A stretch of DNA of 59,474 bases from assembly GCA_964563615.1 (NCBI GenBank), contig CAZLWF010000005.1:1-59474 (forward strand). Direction: 5' to 3'. Shown one piece after another: positions 8,682 to 58,333 of the stretch (its first letter is position 1; every line of letters starts with the position of its first letter). The notes below the pieces were generated by a model, which saw nothing but the letters and a program-made list of their open reading frames with translations, was not told the DNA's origin and did not search any database. The translations under genes and the position numbers were made by a program. Origin of the DNA: an uncultured Candidatus Saccharibacteria bacterium. Its GTDB lineage: Bacteria; Patescibacteriota; Minisyncoccia; Phycocordibacterales; UBA9973.

Positions 8682-9398
8682 TTAATATTTTCTTATCCAA
8701 TCATATGTTTCCTCAAATAATTTCTTTTCTGCTTCATGGGAATTAAAATTATGATCTGCGAAGTCAAGATTAATAAGCAACTTTGGCTTATTTGCTTTCA
8801 CAAAATACTTTTTACTGTCCTTACCTGTGCCTGTTCCAATAAATTTTACCGGAATATGTATTTTTTTAATAAGTTCTCCGCAATCTGGAAAATCGAATAA
8901 TTGCTTTATGAATTTCTCACCGATTCTAATTTTCATACCCCAATCTATGTAATACTCCTTCCCAATTTTATATTTAGTAAAAAACTTTTTCTCATCTTCA
9001 CTTTTTACATATGGGGCATCCCATAAAACAATGGCTTTCACCAAGCTCATATTAGAAAAAAGTAGTGATGTTCCACCAAAACTGTGACCAATGAGATAGA
9101 TACTTTTATATTGCTTTTGAAAATGACCAAGTACGGTTGTTATGTCATCACCATGCTGGCTAATACTAGTCTCTTCGAAATGCCTAGCATATTTATTATC
9201 ATTATAAAAATCAAAACGGAATGTATCGTAACCTTTCTCACCAAAAAATTTCGCCCCATTAAAATGGATATGCTCATTACGGTTACCCGTAAAACCATGA
9301 CAGAAGATGACTAATTTACTTGAACCCTTTTTGCTTTTAACGAGATCCCCATAGACGAAATGCCCATCCTTAGTTTTAATTTTTAGCTCTTTTTGCAT
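8682..9398 (-). CDS. Alpha/beta hydrolase
   Basis: HGFTG oxyanion motif, GHSFG nucleophile elbow and a C-terminal ADHNF. Confidence 0.85.
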   Translation of the reverse strand: MQKELKIKTKDGHFVYGDLVKSKKGSSKLVIFCHGFTGNRNEHIHFNGAKFFGEKGYDTFRFDFYNDNKYARHFEETSISQHGDDITTVLGHFQKQYKSIYLIGHSFGGTSLLFSNMSLVKAIVLWDAPYVKSEDEKKFFTKYKIGKEYYIDWGMKIRIGEKFIKQLFDFPDCGELIKKIHIPVKFIGTGTGKDSKKYFVKANKPKLLINLDFADHNFNSHEAEKKLFEETYDWIRKY

Positions 9399-9410
9399 AC
9401 AGAGACTATA

Positions 9411-9725
9411 TCATACAATCTTAAACGTAATCATTTTAACCATTGAACTATCATTTATATCTGCATAAAATCTTCGTAAATCAGTAAACATTTCTTCTTT
9501 AGAAGAATACTTACCTTTCATATCTTCTTCCGTGACTCCAGCGATTTGCTTATCAATAACGTTTGTTATTATCGCATGGGCAAAAACTTCATTTGTCGCA
9601 GATTCAATCAAAGCAATTTCATCATCAACCTTTAAATCTTTTGCACTATTAATTCGCCACGTAGAATCTTTGTTCCCTTCTAAAATCCAGTTCTTTTTGA
9701 TTTCTGTAAAACCAAGAGCTTTCAT
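9411..9725 (-). CDS. ASCH domain protein
   Basis: 104 aa with ILEGNKDSTWR, matching the ASCH GxKxxTxR signature. Confidence 0.7.
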   Translation of the reverse strand: MKALGFTEIKKNWILEGNKDSTWRINSAKDLKVDDEIALIESATNEVFAHAIITNVIDKQIAGVTEEDMKGKYSSKEEMFTDLRRFYADINDSSMVKMITFKIV

Positions 9726-9779: not shown

Positions 9780-10538
9780 TTATATTAAATCAAATTCGAG
9801 ATAAAGAGGATTATGATCAGAAACTACATCTGCCAACACTTTGAAATCTCTAACAATTATTTCTGGAGAGCAAAATATGTAATCAGCAAATTTAAGTGTT
9901 TTTTTATAGAGTTCTGTGCGGGTTGAAATTATATTATATTCTTTTATAAGATTTTTTAAACCTATATCTTCAAGCATTTGCATACTTTGAGTGTTCGGTA
10001 AAAGATTGAAATCACCTACTATAATCTGAGGACCATCAAAAGATTCTATTAAATCAACTACTATCTTTGATTGATTAAGTCTTTTTTCACTATCACTCTT
10101 CCCTTCCGGTCGATGAGTGAAGTGTGTATTCATTATCCTTAGTCTGCTGCCTTTCACTAGTAAATCAAACCATTGCAATTTCCTATCATGATCTCTATTT
10201 TCTACATCATTAGATTCTTCCCAATTTCCTTTAGCAATGAGAATATCTCCTTTTTCTAAAACTTCAATTTTTTTATTTATATATGTTGCAATACCATAAC
10301 GCTCCTCTAGTACATCACAAAATTCATAATTATGATTTTCTAAAGAATTTCTAATTTGTTCAAAAAGATCATGTTTTACTTCCCGACCTGAAACCTGAAC
10401 AAATGCTTGAGAATTTTGGTTCTGCTTATAAATTTCTTGAAAACAAAAGATGTCTATCTCATTTTTTCTACTTTCGATAAAGTTCTTTAGTCCAGGCCAG
10501 ACTCTTCCACCCCATGCATTAAGTGTAATAAGTTTCAT
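9780..10538 (-). CDS. Endonuclease/exonuclease/phosphatase (EEP) family protein
   Basis: LITLN, FCFQE, NTHF, GDFN, DYIF and SDHNP motifs. The ATG overlaps the ileS TGA (TGATG). Confidence 0.9.
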   Translation of the reverse strand: MKLITLNAWGGRVWPGLKNFIESRKNEIDIFCFQEIYKQNQNSQAFVQVSGREVKHDLFEQIRNSLENHNYEFCDVLEERYGIATYINKKIEVLEKGDILIAKGNWEESNDVENRDHDRKLQWFDLLVKGSRLRIMNTHFTHRPEGKSDSEKRLNQSKIVVDLIESFDGPQIIVGDFNLLPNTQSMQMLEDIGLKNLIKEYNIISTRTELYKKTLKFADYIFCSPEIIVRDFKVLADVVSDHNPLYLEFDLI

Positions 10539-13500
10539 CACTCTATGTTAATCGAAATAATAATTTCTCCAATATTTACTTCTTGCCCATTATTATCTGC
10601 AAACGTCACTTCTTTTGCCAAGACTGTCTTCTTAAAATCATTCATAAACGGCGTGACGAGTGATTCTGCTCCAGGTGAAATACTGAGAGATATGACATCA
10701 CTAGGAGTTAATCCTGCTTGCTTACGCATGTCTTGCACAGCTCGGACAAATTCTCGATACTCGCCTTCGAGCTTAAGCTCCGGTGTAATACGCTCATCAA
10801 AAACAATCACTGGACCTTTTTCAACAGCTTTGACATTGAGCTCATCTTTGATGAGTTCTTTGTAGTAATCACTTAGGTCTTCGGTGACGAAGAAAAATGC
10901 AAGTGGCTGGCGCACAGGGATATTAGCTTTCTTCCTGAGTGCATTTCCGACCGTGCACAAATCCCGAACAACCTGCATATTTTCTATTAACTGTTTACTA
11001 TTCACTATTGACTGTGTTCCTGGCCAATCACTTAGATGCACACTTTCTACATCTGCCTCATGTCGTAATCGTTGCCATATATCTTCCGCAGCAAATGGTG
11101 CAAATGGCGCCATCACTTGGGCGAGAATTTTTAATACTGTATACAATGTTTGCTTTGCATCAGTATCACCATCTTTGATGCGGTCTCTCGAACGACGTAG
11201 ATACCATGTCGAAAGATCACCAATAAAGTCTCGAATTGCCCGTACAGGTTCAAGGGCTTTGTATGCATCGAGCTTCTCGGTTGTGAGGACGATGACTTGA
11301 TCAAGCCGAGCCAGTACCCATTGATCAAGAATGTTTTTACTTTCGACTTTCGACGTATCACTTTCGACTATTGTATCCCTATACAACTCATAGAACGATA
11401 AAATATTATACAAGAGCCCAAATACTTGACGTTGAAGTTCGCCAACTGTCCGTTCATCGAAATTCTTGGACTCACCCGGCTGGTTGACTGAGTACATCCA
11501 CAAACGAAGCGTATCGACGCCGTATTTCTCAATCATCGTCCAGGGGTCAACAACATTCCCGATTGATTTAGACATTTTCTTGCCGTCTTTATCGAGAATA
11601 TGTCCGAGACAAATAACATTCTTGTACGCCAAACCACGATCCATGAGCACACCAACAGCGAGGAGTGTATAGAACCAGCCTCGTGTTTGATCGATCGCTT
11701 CAGAAATAAAGTCTGCTGGGTACCCTGGACCTTCGACAAAATCTTTATTCTCAAATGGATAATGATCCTGTGCGAACGGCATAGCACCTGAGTCAAACCA
11801 GACATCCATGACTTCTTTTACCCGACGGAATTCCTTGCCATCTCGCTCCAGTACGATTTCATCAATAAATGGACGATGCGGATCAAGCTCATAATTTACA
11901 TTATGCGGCAGTGGCACAAATGGAAGTTCCCTAACTTCTGCATTATTTAAATATTTAAATTCCTTTTTGTCCGTAACAAGATCGAGTGATCGATCTGGAT
12001 CTAAACCTTGCGCACCTGCAACCAAAAGCCATGATGGACCACCATGCGTCACCAGAAGAATATTTTTATTTTGATATTTTGATTCCAGCTCATACAAGAG
12101 ATCCATTGATCGCTTTTTTACATCCATATACGATTCCCCATCTGGATACGCAAATGAGAAATTCTCTGCATTTTTCGGAAGCGTCGTATGATATTCTATC
12201 CAGGTCTTGAAACCAGCATTACCAACTTTGAATTCGCGAAGTCGATCATCAATTATGATACTTTCTTTTGGGAGATCAAGAATCTCACGAATGATTTCTG
12301 TTGTTTCTTCTGTACGAACGAATGGTGAAGCAATGATAAGCTCAATATTTTGCTTTTTTAATTCTTCCGCGCTCACTCGCACCTGTTCTCTACCCTTCTC
12401 TGTGAGATGATCCGGCGCATCTACAATCTCGCTAATAAATCCACCTAGGTTGTGCTCTGCTTCCCCGTGTCGCATCACGAAATACGTATTACCTGACTTT
12501 TTCGTATATTTCTTGAGGGTTTCAAATGAATCGACAACCAATACCTCTCCGTCAGTTGCTACCCAAATCGGTAGTGGTGTTCCCCAGTACCGTTCACGAG
12601 AAATCGCCCAATCTTTCACTTCACGGATCCACTCACCAAAGCGCCCTTCTTTAGTATGATCTGGTTCCCAATTGATCTTATGATTTTCAGCAACAAGCGT
12701 ATCGCGAAGCGTTGACATGCGGATATACCAAGAATCTCGAGCATAATAGATAAGCGCAGTTTTACAACGCCAACAATGTGGATATGAGTGAGTGTATTTT
12801 TCTTTCTTGAAAAGTAATCCTCGATGTGCCAAATCTTTGATAACATCGACTGCTGTCTCTTCATCTTTGACAAATTTCCCTTCGAGGAAATCAGTGCCTT
12901 TGACGAAATGACCTGCCTCATCAACGAGGTGGAATTTAGGTAGTCCTACTTTTGTACCGAGCTCGAAATCTTCTTGCCCATACATGACTGCAGTGTGCAC
13001 AATGCCTGTACCATCAGTCGTGGTCACAAAATCTGCTGGATAGACCTTGTACGCATTTACTAATTTTTCATCACCAGCATCAAGATTTTGAAGATATGGG
13101 TAGAGAGGTTCATATTGCATACCTACCATTTCATTACCCGTATGCTCTGCAATAATTTCATGCGGTTCCGCAATAACAGATAAACGTTCTTTTGCTAACA
13201 CCAAAATTTCATCTCCGACTTTGACTTCTACATACACCACATCTTTACCCACCGCCAAACCAACATTGCCAGGCAGTGTCCATGGGGTCGTTGTCCATGC
13301 AAGAAAATAACCATTGTCTGTTCCGACAATTTTAAACTTTGCAGTTACTGAAAGGTCGGTATCATCTTGATACCCTTGGGCAAGTTCGTGTGACGAAAGC
13401 GCTGTCCCACAACGAGGACACCACGGTACGACTTTGTAGTCTTTGTAGAGCAAGCCTTTGTCATGTACTTTTGAGACAATATTCCAAATTGATTCGATAA

Positions 13501-13969
13501 AATCACTCTTGTAGGTGATGTAGGGATTTTTGTGATCTACCCAATATCCGGATCGATCAGTAAATCGTTCCCATTCATCGATATATTTCCACACACTCTC
13601 ACGGCATTTATCATTGAATGCTGCAATACCGTAGGATTCGATTTCTTTTTTGGATTTCAATCCCAATTCTTTTTCGACTTGGAGTTCTACTGGTAACCCA
13701 TGTGTATCCCAGCCGCCTTTCCTACGCACATGAAATCCTTGCATTGTTTTATACCGTGGAAATGCATCTTTGAAACAACGAGGTTCTAGGTGGTGAATGC
13801 CAGGCTTGCCATTGGCTGTCGGCGGACCATCATAGAAAACAAACTCACCCTTTGGAGATTCTTTCTCAAGAGATTTTTGGAATATAGTATTATCTTTCCA
13901 AAACTGCAAAACTGCTTCTTCACGAAGCGCTGTGTCTGATTTATTATTTTGTTCGTTGTTCTCTAACAT
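10538..13969 (-). CDS. ileS: Isoleucine--tRNA ligase, type 2, with inserted histidine-phosphatase domain
   Basis: FYDGPPTANGKPGIHH, GWDTHGLP, WTTTPWTLP, WAISRERYWG and KMSKS. The RHG...VTHGG domain is inserted before VMDVWFDSG. Confidence 0.95.
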   Translation of the reverse strand: MLENNEQNNKSDTALREEAVLQFWKDNTIFQKSLEKESPKGEFVFYDGPPTANGKPGIHHLEPRCFKDAFPRYKTMQGFHVRRKGGWDTHGLPVELQVEKELGLKSKKEIESYGIAAFNDKCRESVWKYIDEWERFTDRSGYWVDHKNPYITYKSDFIESIWNIVSKVHDKGLLYKDYKVVPWCPRCGTALSSHELAQGYQDDTDLSVTAKFKIVGTDNGYFLAWTTTPWTLPGNVGLAVGKDVVYVEVKVGDEILVLAKERLSVIAEPHEIIAEHTGNEMVGMQYEPLYPYLQNLDAGDEKLVNAYKVYPADFVTTTDGTGIVHTAVMYGQEDFELGTKVGLPKFHLVDEAGHFVKGTDFLEGKFVKDEETAVDVIKDLAHRGLLFKKEKYTHSYPHCWRCKTALIYYARDSWYIRMSTLRDTLVAENHKINWEPDHTKEGRFGEWIREVKDWAISRERYWGTPLPIWVATDGEVLVVDSFETLKKYTKKSGNTYFVMRHGEAEHNLGGFISEIVDAPDHLTEKGREQVRVSAEELKKQNIELIIASPFVRTEETTEIIREILDLPKESIIIDDRLREFKVGNAGFKTWIEYHTTLPKNAENFSFAYPDGESYMDVKKRSMDLLYELESKYQNKNILLVTHGGPSWLLVAGAQGLDPDRSLDLVTDKKEFKYLNNAEVRELPFVPLPHNVNYELDPHRPFIDEIVLERDGKEFRRVKEVMDVWFDSGAMPFAQDHYPFENKDFVEGPGYPADFISEAIDQTRGWFYTLLAVGVLMDRGLAYKNVICLGHILDKDGKKMSKSIGNVVDPWTMIEKYGVDTLRLWMYSVNQPGESKNFDERTVGELQRQVFGLLYNILSFYELYRDTIVESDTSKVESKNILDQWVLARLDQVIVLTTEKLDAYKALEPVRAIRDFIGDLSTWYLRRSRDRIKDGDTDAKQTLYTVLKILAQVMAPFAPFAAEDIWQRLRHEADVESVHLSDWPGTQSIVNSKQLIENMQVVRDLCTVGNALRKKANIPVRQPLAFFFVTEDLSDYYKELIKDELNVKAVEKGPVIVFDERITPELKLEGEYREFVRAVQDMRKQAGLTPSDVISLSISPGAESLVTPFMNDFKKTVLAKEVTFADNNGQEVNIGEIIISINIE

Positions 13970-14207: not shown

Positions 14208-14263
14208 AAAAACTCGTCCACGAATCACGATAAACATCATGATTCAAGGACGAGTTTCTTTTT
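14206..14263. terminator. Bidirectional intrinsic terminator (T-box terminator and terminator of 14016-14207)
   Basis: aaactcgtcc...gaatcacgat aaac atcatgattc...ggacgagttt, with T tracts on both strands. Confidence 0.85.
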
Positions 14264-14408
14264 ATATAAGAAATCGTGGTACCACCTTGCTTGCTTCTCA
14301 TTTACTGCTATTACGGGCTTACCCGTCAGGTTCTAGAGTCTTGCGACATTCTTCCTGAAGCTGCCCCCGTTTGGAGGACCAAGAGGTGATTGCCTCTTCA
14401 ATGCTTAT
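14206..14408 (-). promoter_or_regulatory. T-box riboswitch (Ile specifier AUC) upstream of ileS
   Basis: Minus strand: the antiterminator CAAGG-UGGUACC-ACG (14275-14289) pairs with CGU-CCUUG (14245-14252). The AAGAGG/CCUCUU hairpin has loop CAAUCA containing AUC (14388-14390), and there is an alternative terminator hairpin. An extended -10 TGATAGTAT lies at about 14415-14423. Confidence 0.9.
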
Positions 14409-14457
14409 AAAGAAATACTATCACATAGGTAATAAAAGTCTATGTTACAATATTTCC

Positions 14458-16659: not shown

Positions 16660-18372
16660 CTACATTTTTTCGGGCACTTGTATACCCAAAAGCGATAGCC
16701 CATTTTTCATGACTATTGTAAATGTTTTTGTTAGAGCGATTTTGTATGGTGAATACTCATCTTTACTATCCACGATTGCAGTTTCTGCATAGAAACTATT
16801 GAATGCGCTCGCAAGTTCTATCAAATACGTCGCTATGTGGTGTGGTGCATAACTCTCCCCTGCGCGAACAACAACTTCCGGGAAGCGATACAATAAATGT
16901 TCCAGTAAACTAACCTGGCTTGGTGCTTGACCTGCATCAATTGCAATCCCCTCTGTTTCGGCTTTCCTCAAGACTGACTGGGCACGCGTTGCGCTGTATT
17001 GAAGATAAGGACCAGAATCACCCTCAAAGGAAATCGACTTGTCGAAATCATAGACAATATCACCACCAATCGCCGAGCGCAAAATGGCATATTTGATTGC
17101 AGCAACCGCTACCTGCGTGACGACTTCCTCACGCTCAAATGCAGTAAATGCCCGTCCTTGGACACGCTCGAGGATCACCTGCATTGCTTCATTTAGAAGC
17201 GACTCACCGGTAACCACATTGCCTTTACGTGAGGCCATTTTGCCCGACACGAGGCGCATCATACCGTTGGTGATATGCATCGTCCGATCTGCCCACATAG
17301 GTTCAATATGACGCATAGCCTCTTTGACCACTTTCATATATTCACCTTGTTCAACAGCGGTCGTAACAATAGAGAGATCAGGGTTTTCATAGGCAAATTT
17401 CTGCTTGGTAAGTCCAAGTTCTTTGGTCTCATAGGTTGGCAGCCCTTGGGAATTCACAAAGACGCGTGTGTGAAGCGCAGGATTATATTTCTCACCGTGA
17501 AAGACAACTGCCCCATCGCTTTTCTCAAAGACTCCTTTCTCTAGATATTCGTTCACAATCGCAAGACCGATCGGCGCCATCTCACTTTCAAAAAAAGAAT
17601 AATCAAACTTCGTGCCGAGTATTGTGTAAAGTGATTCAAATGCAGCAAGCGTTACGCCCCTGCCCCAATCATAAAGCTCGTTGATTTTCTCTTCGCTTCG
17701 ATCATAAATTTCTTTATTAATCGCATCAATTTCTTTTTTCGCTTCGGTATCATTTTCGTATGCATCGTTACCTTTGGCATAGCATTCGCCGATATAGAGC
17801 GCTTGTGCCGATACAGCTTCAAGTTCAGCTGGTATAGGATTTTTCATGAGACCATAAATCGCTTTCGCTACGTGTGGACCAACGTCGCCTTGATAGTTGG
17901 CACGGATCACTTTAGCACCGTGATATTCGACTATTCTTGAAATCGATTCACCGATGGCATTCGTCATCAAATGTCCAATATGAAATGGCTTGAATGGATT
18001 TGGCTGTGTATACTCAACCATGACTTTTTTCCCAGAAAGTATTTCATTTTTGCCATAGTTTTCATGTGCCTTGAGTATTGCCGCAACTTCATTTGTAAAA
18101 AATTCTCTACTCAAGTAGAAATTAATAAATCCAGGGCCAGCTATTTCAATCTTCTCGATCTCTGGCAGTTTAGTTTTCTCAAGTTCAGTAAGTATAAGCT
18201 TTGCAACGTCTTGTGGAGATTTGCCGAGTGGTTTTGCAAGTGCGAGAGCAACATTGGTCGAGTAGTCACCATGAGCAAAATCCCCAGGGTGGTCGAGCTT
18301 AATAGCTTGATCAGTAAAACCAAGTGCTGCTAGGGATTCCTGTATATAGGCTGTAAGCTTTTCTGCGATCAT
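16660..18372 (-). CDS. argS: Arginine--tRNA ligase
   Basis: HGDYSTNVAL, IAGPGFINF, VEYTQPNPFKPFHIGH, KMASRKG and GDSGPYLQY motifs. Confidence 0.95.
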   Translation of the reverse strand: MIAEKLTAYIQESLAALGFTDQAIKLDHPGDFAHGDYSTNVALALAKPLGKSPQDVAKLILTELEKTKLPEIEKIEIAGPGFINFYLSREFFTNEVAAILKAHENYGKNEILSGKKVMVEYTQPNPFKPFHIGHLMTNAIGESISRIVEYHGAKVIRANYQGDVGPHVAKAIYGLMKNPIPAELEAVSAQALYIGECYAKGNDAYENDTEAKKEIDAINKEIYDRSEEKINELYDWGRGVTLAAFESLYTILGTKFDYSFFESEMAPIGLAIVNEYLEKGVFEKSDGAVVFHGEKYNPALHTRVFVNSQGLPTYETKELGLTKQKFAYENPDLSIVTTAVEQGEYMKVVKEAMRHIEPMWADRTMHITNGMMRLVSGKMASRKGNVVTGESLLNEAMQVILERVQGRAFTAFEREEVVTQVAVAAIKYAILRSAIGGDIVYDFDKSISFEGDSGPYLQYSATRAQSVLRKAETEGIAIDAGQAPSQVSLLEHLLYRFPEVVVRAGESYAPHHIATYLIELASAFNSFYAETAIVDSKDEYSPYKIALTKTFTIVMKNGLSLLGIQVPEKM

Positions 18373-57704: not shown

Positions 57705-58333
57705 GAGGGTACTTGTGATTCAGTCTGGCGAATCTCCTTGTGTATCATATGGCCAGTCTCGTCAATATCATAAATAAGAATCGAGCCAAAGGGTATCTCG
57801 ATATCTGCTATATTCTCGTCGGAAATGTTCTCAATATATTTGACGAGCGTGCGAAGCGAATTACCATGCGCTACGACCAGTATATTTTTATTTTCCATAA
57901 CTCGTGGCAAGATTTTTTCTAAAAAATAAGGGACCGCGCGATCATAGACCATCTTAAGCGATTCGCCATTGGGTATGGGATATTCCCAGCCTCGTCGGAG
58001 TTTCTTAAATTCTTCTTCGCCGAGAATCTTCTCCATTTCCCATTTATTCTTTCCTGTATAGTCACCATAATCGCGTTCATTCAAAGCGGCAGCGTGCTCT
58101 GTTGGTACTTTGTATCGCTTACATACATTGAGCATGCAGGAAAGTGTCTCAATAGAACGCACGAGCATCGAAGCAAAGGCATAGTCGATCTCGATATCTT
58201 GTATGAGGAATCCCATATCTTCGGATTTATTGAATCCATATTGGTCCAAATGGCGATCACGCAAACCTGTCCATTTACCGAGCTTGTTCCATTCTGATTC
58301 GTGATGTCGTGCCAAGAGAAGTTTGCTTGTCAT
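57701..58333 (-). CDS. gpmA: 2,3-bisphosphoglycerate-dependent phosphoglycerate mutase
   Basis: LARHHESEWN, WTG, LNERDYG, GESL and VAHGNSLR. Confidence 0.88.
   Translation of the reverse strand: MTSKLLLARHHESEWNKLGKWTGLRDRHLDQYGFNKSEDMGFLIQDIEIDYAFASMLVRSIETLSCMLNVCKRYKVPTEHAAALNERDYGDYTGKNKWEMEKILGEEEFKKLRRGWEYPIPNGESLKMVYDRAVPYFLEKILPRVMENKNILVVAHGNSLRTLVKYIENISDENIADIEIPFGSILIYDIDETGHMIHKEIRQTESQVPS

Follow-up and report, generated by a model that had tools for sequence, protein, structure and literature searches.

Results

The window's ileS gene encodes an isoleucyl-tRNA synthetase with a nested histidine-phosphatase domain

The DNA analysed here (hereafter the window) comprises 59,474 nucleotides of contig CAZLWF010000005.1 (GenBank assembly GCA_964563615.1) from an uncultured Candidatus Saccharibacteria bacterium, placed by GTDB in the class Minisyncoccia of the Patescibacteriota. 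On its minus strand lies a complete gene, ileS, for a type-2 isoleucyl-tRNA synthetase (IleRS), within whose sequence we find an entire histidine-phosphatase domain of branch 1 (Table 1). An original prediction, made by a model from the DNA letters alone, had described this domain as intact; the nesting is confirmed by Pfam (E 1.5e-32), by alignment to PDB 8C8W and by the profile TIGR00392, and all of the quoted motifs as well as the enzyme length of 1143 amino acids recur in the translated open reading frame (ORF). The match far exceeds anything that chance could produce, and it is virtually certain that the domain is truly nested in IleRS.

The assignment of the host protein is based on profiles, structures and motifs. 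It scores 876.4 bits with the NCBIfam ileS equivalog TIGR00392 (cut-off 621.4), and its best relatives in the PDB are IleRS2 enzymes, led by that of Priestia megaterium (8C8W, E 2.4e-238). The body aligns end to end with IleRS2 (8C8U, 8C8W) and with the Thermus thermophilus enzyme 1ILE (E 1e-231 to 1e-238; target TM-score, TMt, 0.80-0.84). The AlphaFold2 (AF2) model of the full-length protein has a predicted local distance difference test (pLDDT) of 91.1 and a predicted TM-score (pTM) of 0.84, and Foldseek matches it to 8C8U with a TMt of 0.80. Pfam places tRNA-synt_1 at residues 20-491, Anticodon_1 at 882-1023 and DUF5915, the type-2 C-terminal domain that is shared with IleRS2, at 1054-1143. 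Also shared with IleRS2 are KMSKS (798-802), the editing motifs WTTTPWT (225-231, within WTTTPWTLPGN) and GTGIVH (320-325), and the class I HIGH signature, which reads PGIHH and is thus of the GxHH type (residues 57-60, window 13790-13801); such a variant in IleRS2 is tied to mupirocin hyper-resistance in the title of the 8C8W entry. With KMSKS and both editing motifs in place, the host appears to be functional, and a tblastn search of the 645-kb, 86%-complete assembly did not find a second IleRS.

The phosphatase domain, delimited by the envelope of a hidden Markov model (HMM) built from homologues, spans 193 residues. Pfam His_Phos_1 (PF00300) matches residues 497-663 with 113.3 bits (cut-off 21.7), flanked by tRNA-synt_1 on either side, and the characteristic motifs follow in order: YFVMRHGEAEHN (496-507), LTEKG (522-526), ASPFVRT (547-553), LREF (577-580) and LVTHGG (639-644). 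The extent first proposed, 11925-12495 (residues 492-682), agrees with that determined here, whereas the stretch between the flanks quoted with it, put at about 190 residues, is actually 223 residues long. In the alignment to 8C8W, residues 7-473 of the window protein correspond to chain residues 4-461 and residues 688-1048 to 479-846. Unlike in IleRS2, the place of the 17-residue zinc-knuckle loop is thus taken by 214 residues (474-687) that hold a whole enzyme, a net excess of about 197. The insert sits in the loop of the zinc knuckle (CxxC...CxC) that follows WGxPxPxW, and about 30 residues separate its end from the DVWFDSG strand. In the T. thermophilus structure the Trp of this strand lines the isoleucine pocket.

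The window protein has also lost the four knuckle cysteines that IleRS2 retains (Table 1). Among 108 full-length insert-bearing homologues, 34 keep both CxxC and CxC around the insert, and 71, the window protein included, lack all four cysteines; this loss is lineage-specific and no argument against the identity of the protein as an IleRS. The junction residues K490, K491, S492, G493 and N494 on one side and P688, H689 and D696 on the other are highly conserved across the same homologues.

Table 1 Positions of ileS, its parts and other features in the window (residues are numbered in the 1143-residue IleRS)
Feature	Window position	Strand	Residues	Basis or remark
ileS, complete type-2 IleRS gene	10538-13969	minus	1-1143	ORF of 1143 aa; profile, PDB and model matches
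IleRS, part before the insert	12491-13969	minus	1-493	First Rossmann half, CP1 editing domain, WGTPLPIW, helix SFETLKKY
Nested His_Phos_1 (branch 1) domain	11912-12490	minus	494-686	Pfam, HMM envelope, AF2, Foldseek
IleRS, part after the insert	10538-11911	minus	687-1143	LPHNVNYELDPHRP return strand, DVWFDSG, KMSKS, anticodon-binding domain, type-2 C-terminal domain
Degenerate first zinc-knuckle half	12545-12562	minus	470-475	VATDGE for CxxC; homologue alignment
Degenerate second zinc-knuckle half	11831-11848	minus	708-713	ERDGKE for CxCGG; homologue and 8C8W alignments
RHG motif, nucleophilic His	12464-12472	minus	R500-H501-G502	Codons cga cac ggg
Second phosphate-binding Arg (ASPFVRT)	12314-12316	minus	R552	100% conserved in both samples
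Presumed proton donor (LREF)	12233-12235	minus	E579	100% in 108 homologues
Second catalytic His (THGG)	12041-12046	minus	H642-G643	H642 100% in 108 homologues
T-box-like leader upstream of ileS	14243-14410	minus		Rfam RF00230, 29.5 bits, E 1.3e-4; weak, below gathering score 93
argS (arginyl-tRNA synthetase, ArgRS)	16660-18372	minus		Pfam Arg_tRNA_synt_N, tRNA-synt_1d, DALR_1; 2.7 kb upstream of ileS
EEP gene	9780-10541	minus		Exo_endo_phos PF03372, E 1.6e-12; starts on ileS stop (TGATG overlap)
ASCH-domain gene	9411-9725			Beyond the EEP gene
Alpha/beta hydrolase gene	8682-9398			Beyond the EEP gene
Free-standing dPGM	57743-58321	minus		193-211 aa; TIGR01258 170 bits vs cut-off 81.7

The architecture is authentic and inherited across the class

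Such an arrangement could be mimicked by a contig of mixed origin or by the calling of two genes as a single one. Against an artefact of this kind, to which we assign a negligible probability, stand the uninterrupted frame with IleRS sequence on both sides, a GC content that is continuous across the junctions with no compositional break, and the presence of the same architecture in over 1000 clusters of independent origin and in 39 independently assembled genomes that were inspected; insert-bearing homologues stem from NCBI, JGI, ENA and Logan assemblies. Misassembly or a gene-calling error was therefore rejected, and the junctions, which had been named as a point where the original prediction might fail, bear no sign of either in GC content or across assemblies.

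At E <= 1e-3 the insert region matched 1674 long proteins, of which the best 120 are all IleRS with His_Phos. In a sample of 401 genomes that covers the phylum evenly, the domain occurs in a long frame in at least 60. Within the window's own class a match is found in 22 of 23 genomes, in 19 of the 23 within IleRS-sized frames (940-1250 aa), and in 12 of these 19 insert-bearing genomes the insert is the sole detectable copy of its phosphatase lineage. We show by this distribution that the insert arrangement is inherited across the whole class.

Catalytic residues, constraint and fold of the phosphatase domain

R500, H501, N507, R552, E579 and H642 are identical in all 108 full-length homologues, and G502 in 99%. 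The same holds at greater distance: in a phylum-wide sample of 50 domains from every context found (25-40% identity), the catalytic residues are kept in 49-50 of 50, with Arg and His of the RHG motif in 50/50, R552 in 100%, H642 in 49/50 and E579 present as Glu or, in three domains, as Asp. The insert has a column entropy of 1.61, equal to that of the C-terminal domain (1.61) and matching the 1.56 of the anticodon-binding domain, and it is free of gaps and never deleted in the homologue alignment. Judged from these alignments, the phosphatase domain is shown to evolve under constraint equal to that of the anticodon-binding domain; relaxed selection on the RHG and HGG motifs, which would have spoken against the prediction, is not seen in the homologues.

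Modelled alone with AF2, the insert reaches a pLDDT of 95.0 and a pTM of 0.92. It adopts an alpha/beta/alpha sandwich that Foldseek superimposes on PspA 4IJ5/4IJ6 (TM-score 0.79-0.80, rmsd 2.5-2.7 Å) and on GpgP 4QIH/6S2Q (0.79-0.80). Because the full catalytic set is retained and invariant in homologues, the domain is probably a catalytically active phosphomonoesterase, as had been proposed and as is a reasonable expectation from sequence.

The insert misses the NCBIfam equivalog cut-offs for CobC (78.8 vs 162.9), PspA (55 vs 350), SixA (45.7 vs 74.5) and NF038349, the archaeal phosphoglycerate mutase profile (75 vs 225), and TIGR01258, the profile of cofactor-dependent phosphoglycerate mutase (dPGM), does not match it; since it falls below every NCBIfam equivalog cut-off, its substrate is not given by homology. 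A role as the glycolytic phosphoglycerate mutase was rejected, because a true dPGM is encoded elsewhere in the window (Table 1) and the insert lies under the mutase cut-offs. Nor is there a vacant pyrophosphatase role that it would need to fill: a homologue of family-I pyrophosphatase (Ppa) is present on contig C1, with 36% identity to an E. coli Ppa query. The genome further encodes another His_Phos protein, its third, which belongs to the same lineage as the insert (204 aa, isoelectric point (pI) 9.3, contig C7:1228-1839).

Hosts of the phosphatase lineage

For a survey of hosts, long-frame matches were fetched from 39 genomes and 40 proteins were classified. All 40 are tRNA synthetases: 29 IleRS, 9 valyl-tRNA synthetases (ValRS) and 2 alanyl-tRNA synthetases (AlaRS), so that the occurrence of His_Phos domains in synthetases of this radiation, for which a survey had been suggested, extends beyond IleRS. 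A single insert at the site seen in the window protein is found in 24 of the 40, and two tandem copies at that site in a further two; tandem copies are present in families other than that of the window protein (L020, L021). The IleRS of one family (3/40) carry the domain at another site, the loop that joins the stem-contact fold to the anticodon-binding domain. In ValRS (9/40) the position is equivalent to that in the window IleRS, and the remaining two hosts are class II AlaRS, a fusion that is rare (3 clusters among 5.8 billion proteins). One genome has inserts in both its IleRS and its ValRS. Among the matches to the insert's lineage there is no fusion to any other long protein; a separate His_Phos lineage is fused to glucosyl-3-phosphoglycerate synthase (P0147). 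In a maximum-likelihood tree, free forms nest among inserted forms, one such grouping with 100% bootstrap, inserts at the second IleRS site form their own clade (100%) and true dPGM is a distant outgroup.

Several hosts carry further insertions. An IleRS from another Patescibacteria family (L017; G314:C85, 1156-5400, minus strand) contains an IS200-like Y1 transposase domain (PF01797, E 6e-10, residues 299-375) in frame in the CP1 editing domain, in addition to a His_Phos domain at the second insertion site. In IleRS L011 (G147:C25, 3938-8290, minus strand) an N-acetyltransferase (GNAT) domain occupies residues ~666-764 in the second Rossmann half and His_Phos precedes the anticodon-binding domain; ValRS L012 of the same genome has two His_Phos stretches. 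The 1358-residue ValRS L022 (G127:C5, 3117-7190, minus strand) extends past its His_Phos insert by about 200 residues (~715-920) with no Pfam match.

Free-standing homologues and their gene neighbourhoods

Few free homologues were matched by a word-indexed search; an exhaustive search yielded 827 representatives at E <= 1e-10, with free and embedded forms mixed. In one family of the window's class (f15), IleRS has no insert, and a free phosphatase gene follows argS directly and precedes ileS by 0.7-2.5 kb. The closest free homologue in a large protein collection, P0121, has a 1-nt overlap with the stop codon of argS. In another, unrelated family a free copy is located 126 bp upstream of an insert-less valS, and free copies also adjoin insert-bearing ileS genes.

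The order argS...ileS is itself conserved in the window and its relatives (L054-L056, L037-L039, L046). In the close relatives L054-L056 the genes run Tmk/dNK, NUDIX, dUTPase, argS, a small unknown ORF and ileS(His_Phos), with CYTH, NDK, Maf or HAD downstream; their ileS thus lies in a nucleotide house-cleaning neighbourhood.

Discussion

The ileS gene of the window, with its single insert, is typical of an architecture that is known but uncharacterised: this cleanly assembled example adds no new kind to what is present in databases and in one earlier report. Kantor et al. 2013 (mBio, PMC3812714) devote one descriptive sentence to an 'unusual isoleucine-tRNA synthetase' of SR1/ACD80 with a Nudix domain and two phosphoglycerate-mutase-type (PGM-type) domains, an annotation oddity to which no function was assigned. 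The two proteins have in common that an IleRS of the candidate phyla radiation (CPR) is split in frame by a PGM-type (His_Phos) domain. Unlike the SR1 protein, that of the window has a single His_Phos domain and, by Pfam, no Nudix domain, and its organism belongs to a different class, to judge by the names of its homologues a Nomurabacteria-type Paceibacteria lineage. Full-text searches revealed no other description and no functional study, in keeping with the prediction's statement that such fusions appear in CPR annotations and are not known from any functional work. NCBIfam also catalogues an IleRS with another nested guest, a whole N-acetyltransferase domain (NF040702, 'ileS_w_GNAT'), and the window protein is not a member of that family (310 vs a cut-off of 1999). 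Few enzymes have been studied as closely as the aminoacyl-tRNA synthetases, and complete foreign enzymes within their catalytic cores are a rarity. The uncultured bacteria of this radiation have repeatedly built an apparently active phosphatase into IleRS, ValRS and AlaRS, often as the only copy of its lineage.

The insert itself resembles free branch-1 phosphatases, namely PspA of H. thermophilus (4IJ5), GpgP Rv2419c of M. tuberculosis (4QIH/6S2Q), PhoE of B. stearothermophilus (1H2E/1EBB), CobC (6NRU) and the riboflavin-pathway phosphatase HFP (9MMH), with which it shares fold (TM-score 0.77-0.80), size and catalytic residues (sequence E ~1e-10). It differs from them in an identity of only 22-28% and in being nested in another enzyme. 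By the usual covalent mechanism of such enzymes, H501 would attack a phosphate gripped by R500, R552, N507 and H642, and E579 would protonate the leaving group. The ileS product would then be a bifunctional housekeeping enzyme that combines IleRS with an active phosphomonoesterase.

We lean, tentatively, towards the phosphatase domain being functionally coupled to aminoacylation. A link with tRNA charging is suggested because all 40 inspected hosts are tRNA synthetases, and coupling is further indicated because the lineage has repeatedly been captured by tRNA synthetases, the only hosts observed, and because its closest free relatives lie beside argS/ileS or valS. The phosphatase would accordingly be expected to act in tRNA charging and not as a mere passenger. 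Speculatively, its substrate may be a phosphorylated adenosine-ribose compound met by all synthetases; candidates would be a 2'- or 3'-phosphate or a pyrophosphate that blocks the A76 end of tRNA, or a nucleotide by-product or poison. The substrates put forward in the original prediction, a tRNA 3'-phosphate, a phospho-amino acid or a nucleotide, are likewise hypothetical. If the phosphatase does work with the synthetase, the fusion would reveal a step of tRNA charging or repair that is new to the literature.

A different reading, which is possible though in our view somewhat doubtful, holds that the domain is an active housekeeping phosphatase of small molecules (a nucleotidase, or a phospho-sugar or phospho-amino-acid phosphatase) that is independent of IleRS and shares only its expression. 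Its gene would once have stood between argS and ileS and, as the genome was compacted, have been taken into a surface loop that tolerates insertions. Several observations fit this history, weigh against coupling, or do both. The structures nearest to the insert, and the closest profiles, all belong to small-molecule phosphatases (PspA, GpgP, PhoE, CobC and the riboflavin-pathway enzyme), and we know of no phosphomonoester intermediate in aminoacylation. Most free homologues are away from synthetase genes: among the 40 top-scoring ones in the phylum sample, two lie directly beside a synthetase gene and two more within 4 kb. The adjacency to argS was downgraded as an independent link to ArgRS, because the conserved argS...ileS synteny means that the free gene possibly just sits upstream of ileS, and the surroundings of ileS in close relatives are rich in Tmk, NUDIX, dUTPase, CYTH, NDK, Maf and HAD genes. 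No homologue is detected at E <= 1e-5 in 174 of the 401 phylum genomes. The insertion points vary (zinc knuckle, loop before the anticodon-binding domain, AlaRS core), so that no shared geometry with respect to the acceptor end is obvious, and the GNAT and IS200-type (Y1) transposase domains that are also hosted by synthetase loops indicate a general tolerance of passengers. No RNA-binding signature or surface was found on the domains, which are acidic (median pI ~6; 5.05 for the window insert). The frequency with which the insert is the only copy in genomes of the class is, moreover, the pattern expected when a free gene is replaced.

What such an independent enzyme leaves unexplained is the choice of host. 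The 40 synthetases belong to both classes, and at least five apparently separate captures would be needed to account for the two IleRS sites, the distinct second tandem domain, ValRS and AlaRS, yet no other long protein was fused to a member of the lineage. Nor does argS-ileS synteny account for the free copy next to valS in an unrelated family. Were the domain nevertheless a passenger, it would illustrate the way in which a reduced genome can accommodate enzymes in permissive loops of its essential genes.

We consider it very improbable that the domain is a catalytically silent module that replaces the zinc knuckle structurally, or that binds a phosphorylated metabolite in order to regulate IleRS. 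The loss of all four knuckle cysteines in the window protein and many of its homologues would allow the insert to brace this region, and the conserved junction residues are compatible with that function. However, the two His (the nucleophile and the second catalytic one), the two Arg and the proton-donor Glu are invariant over deep divergence, whereas pure scaffold domains normally lose their catalytic residues. Knuckle and insert occur together in the 34 homologues that retain the cysteines, and free relatives keep the same catalytic residues.

Within the preferred reading, that of a phosphatase coupled to aminoacylation, a specific action on the tRNA 3' end is unlikely; it draws on a hypothetical functional analogy to RNA-end healing phosphatases (T4 Pnkp, ANGEL2) and to the hydrolases that reverse tRNA 3'-pyrophosphorylation by toxSAS/CapRel. 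The confinement of the inspected hosts to synthetases is circumstantial evidence for such an action, and the acidic pI counts mildly against it. The folds of T4 Pnkp, the 2',3'-cyclic phosphatase ANGEL2 and the toxSAS/CapRel-reversing hydrolases (HAD, EEP and HD) are unrelated to histidine phosphatases, and no member of the histidine-phosphatase superfamily is known to act on RNA ends. In its fullest form, which we would regard as quite unlikely, the phosphatase would be a third active site of the synthetase that unblocks the terminal adenosine while the tRNA is held, removing a 2'- or 3'-phosphate or pyrophosphate left, for example, by toxin attack or unusual 3' processing, or that destroys a phosphorylated adenosine-type poison; the free form beside argS, ileS or valS would serve in the same role. 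If action on the tRNA end were true, end conditioning would be integral to aminoacylation in a large bacterial radiation, and the domain would be the first histidine phosphatase directed at a nucleic acid.

Other features of the locus

Downstream of ileS lies a gene of the endonuclease/exonuclease/phosphatase (EEP) superfamily that starts on the ileS stop codon and is probably co-translated with it (Table 1). Some EEP enzymes heal RNA 3' ends; a link of this gene to ileS was, however, taken as incidental, since none of the other loci fetched contains an EEP homologue. Beyond the EEP gene follow genes for an ASCH-domain protein and an alpha/beta hydrolase, and a weak T-box-like leader is located on the other side, upstream of ileS.

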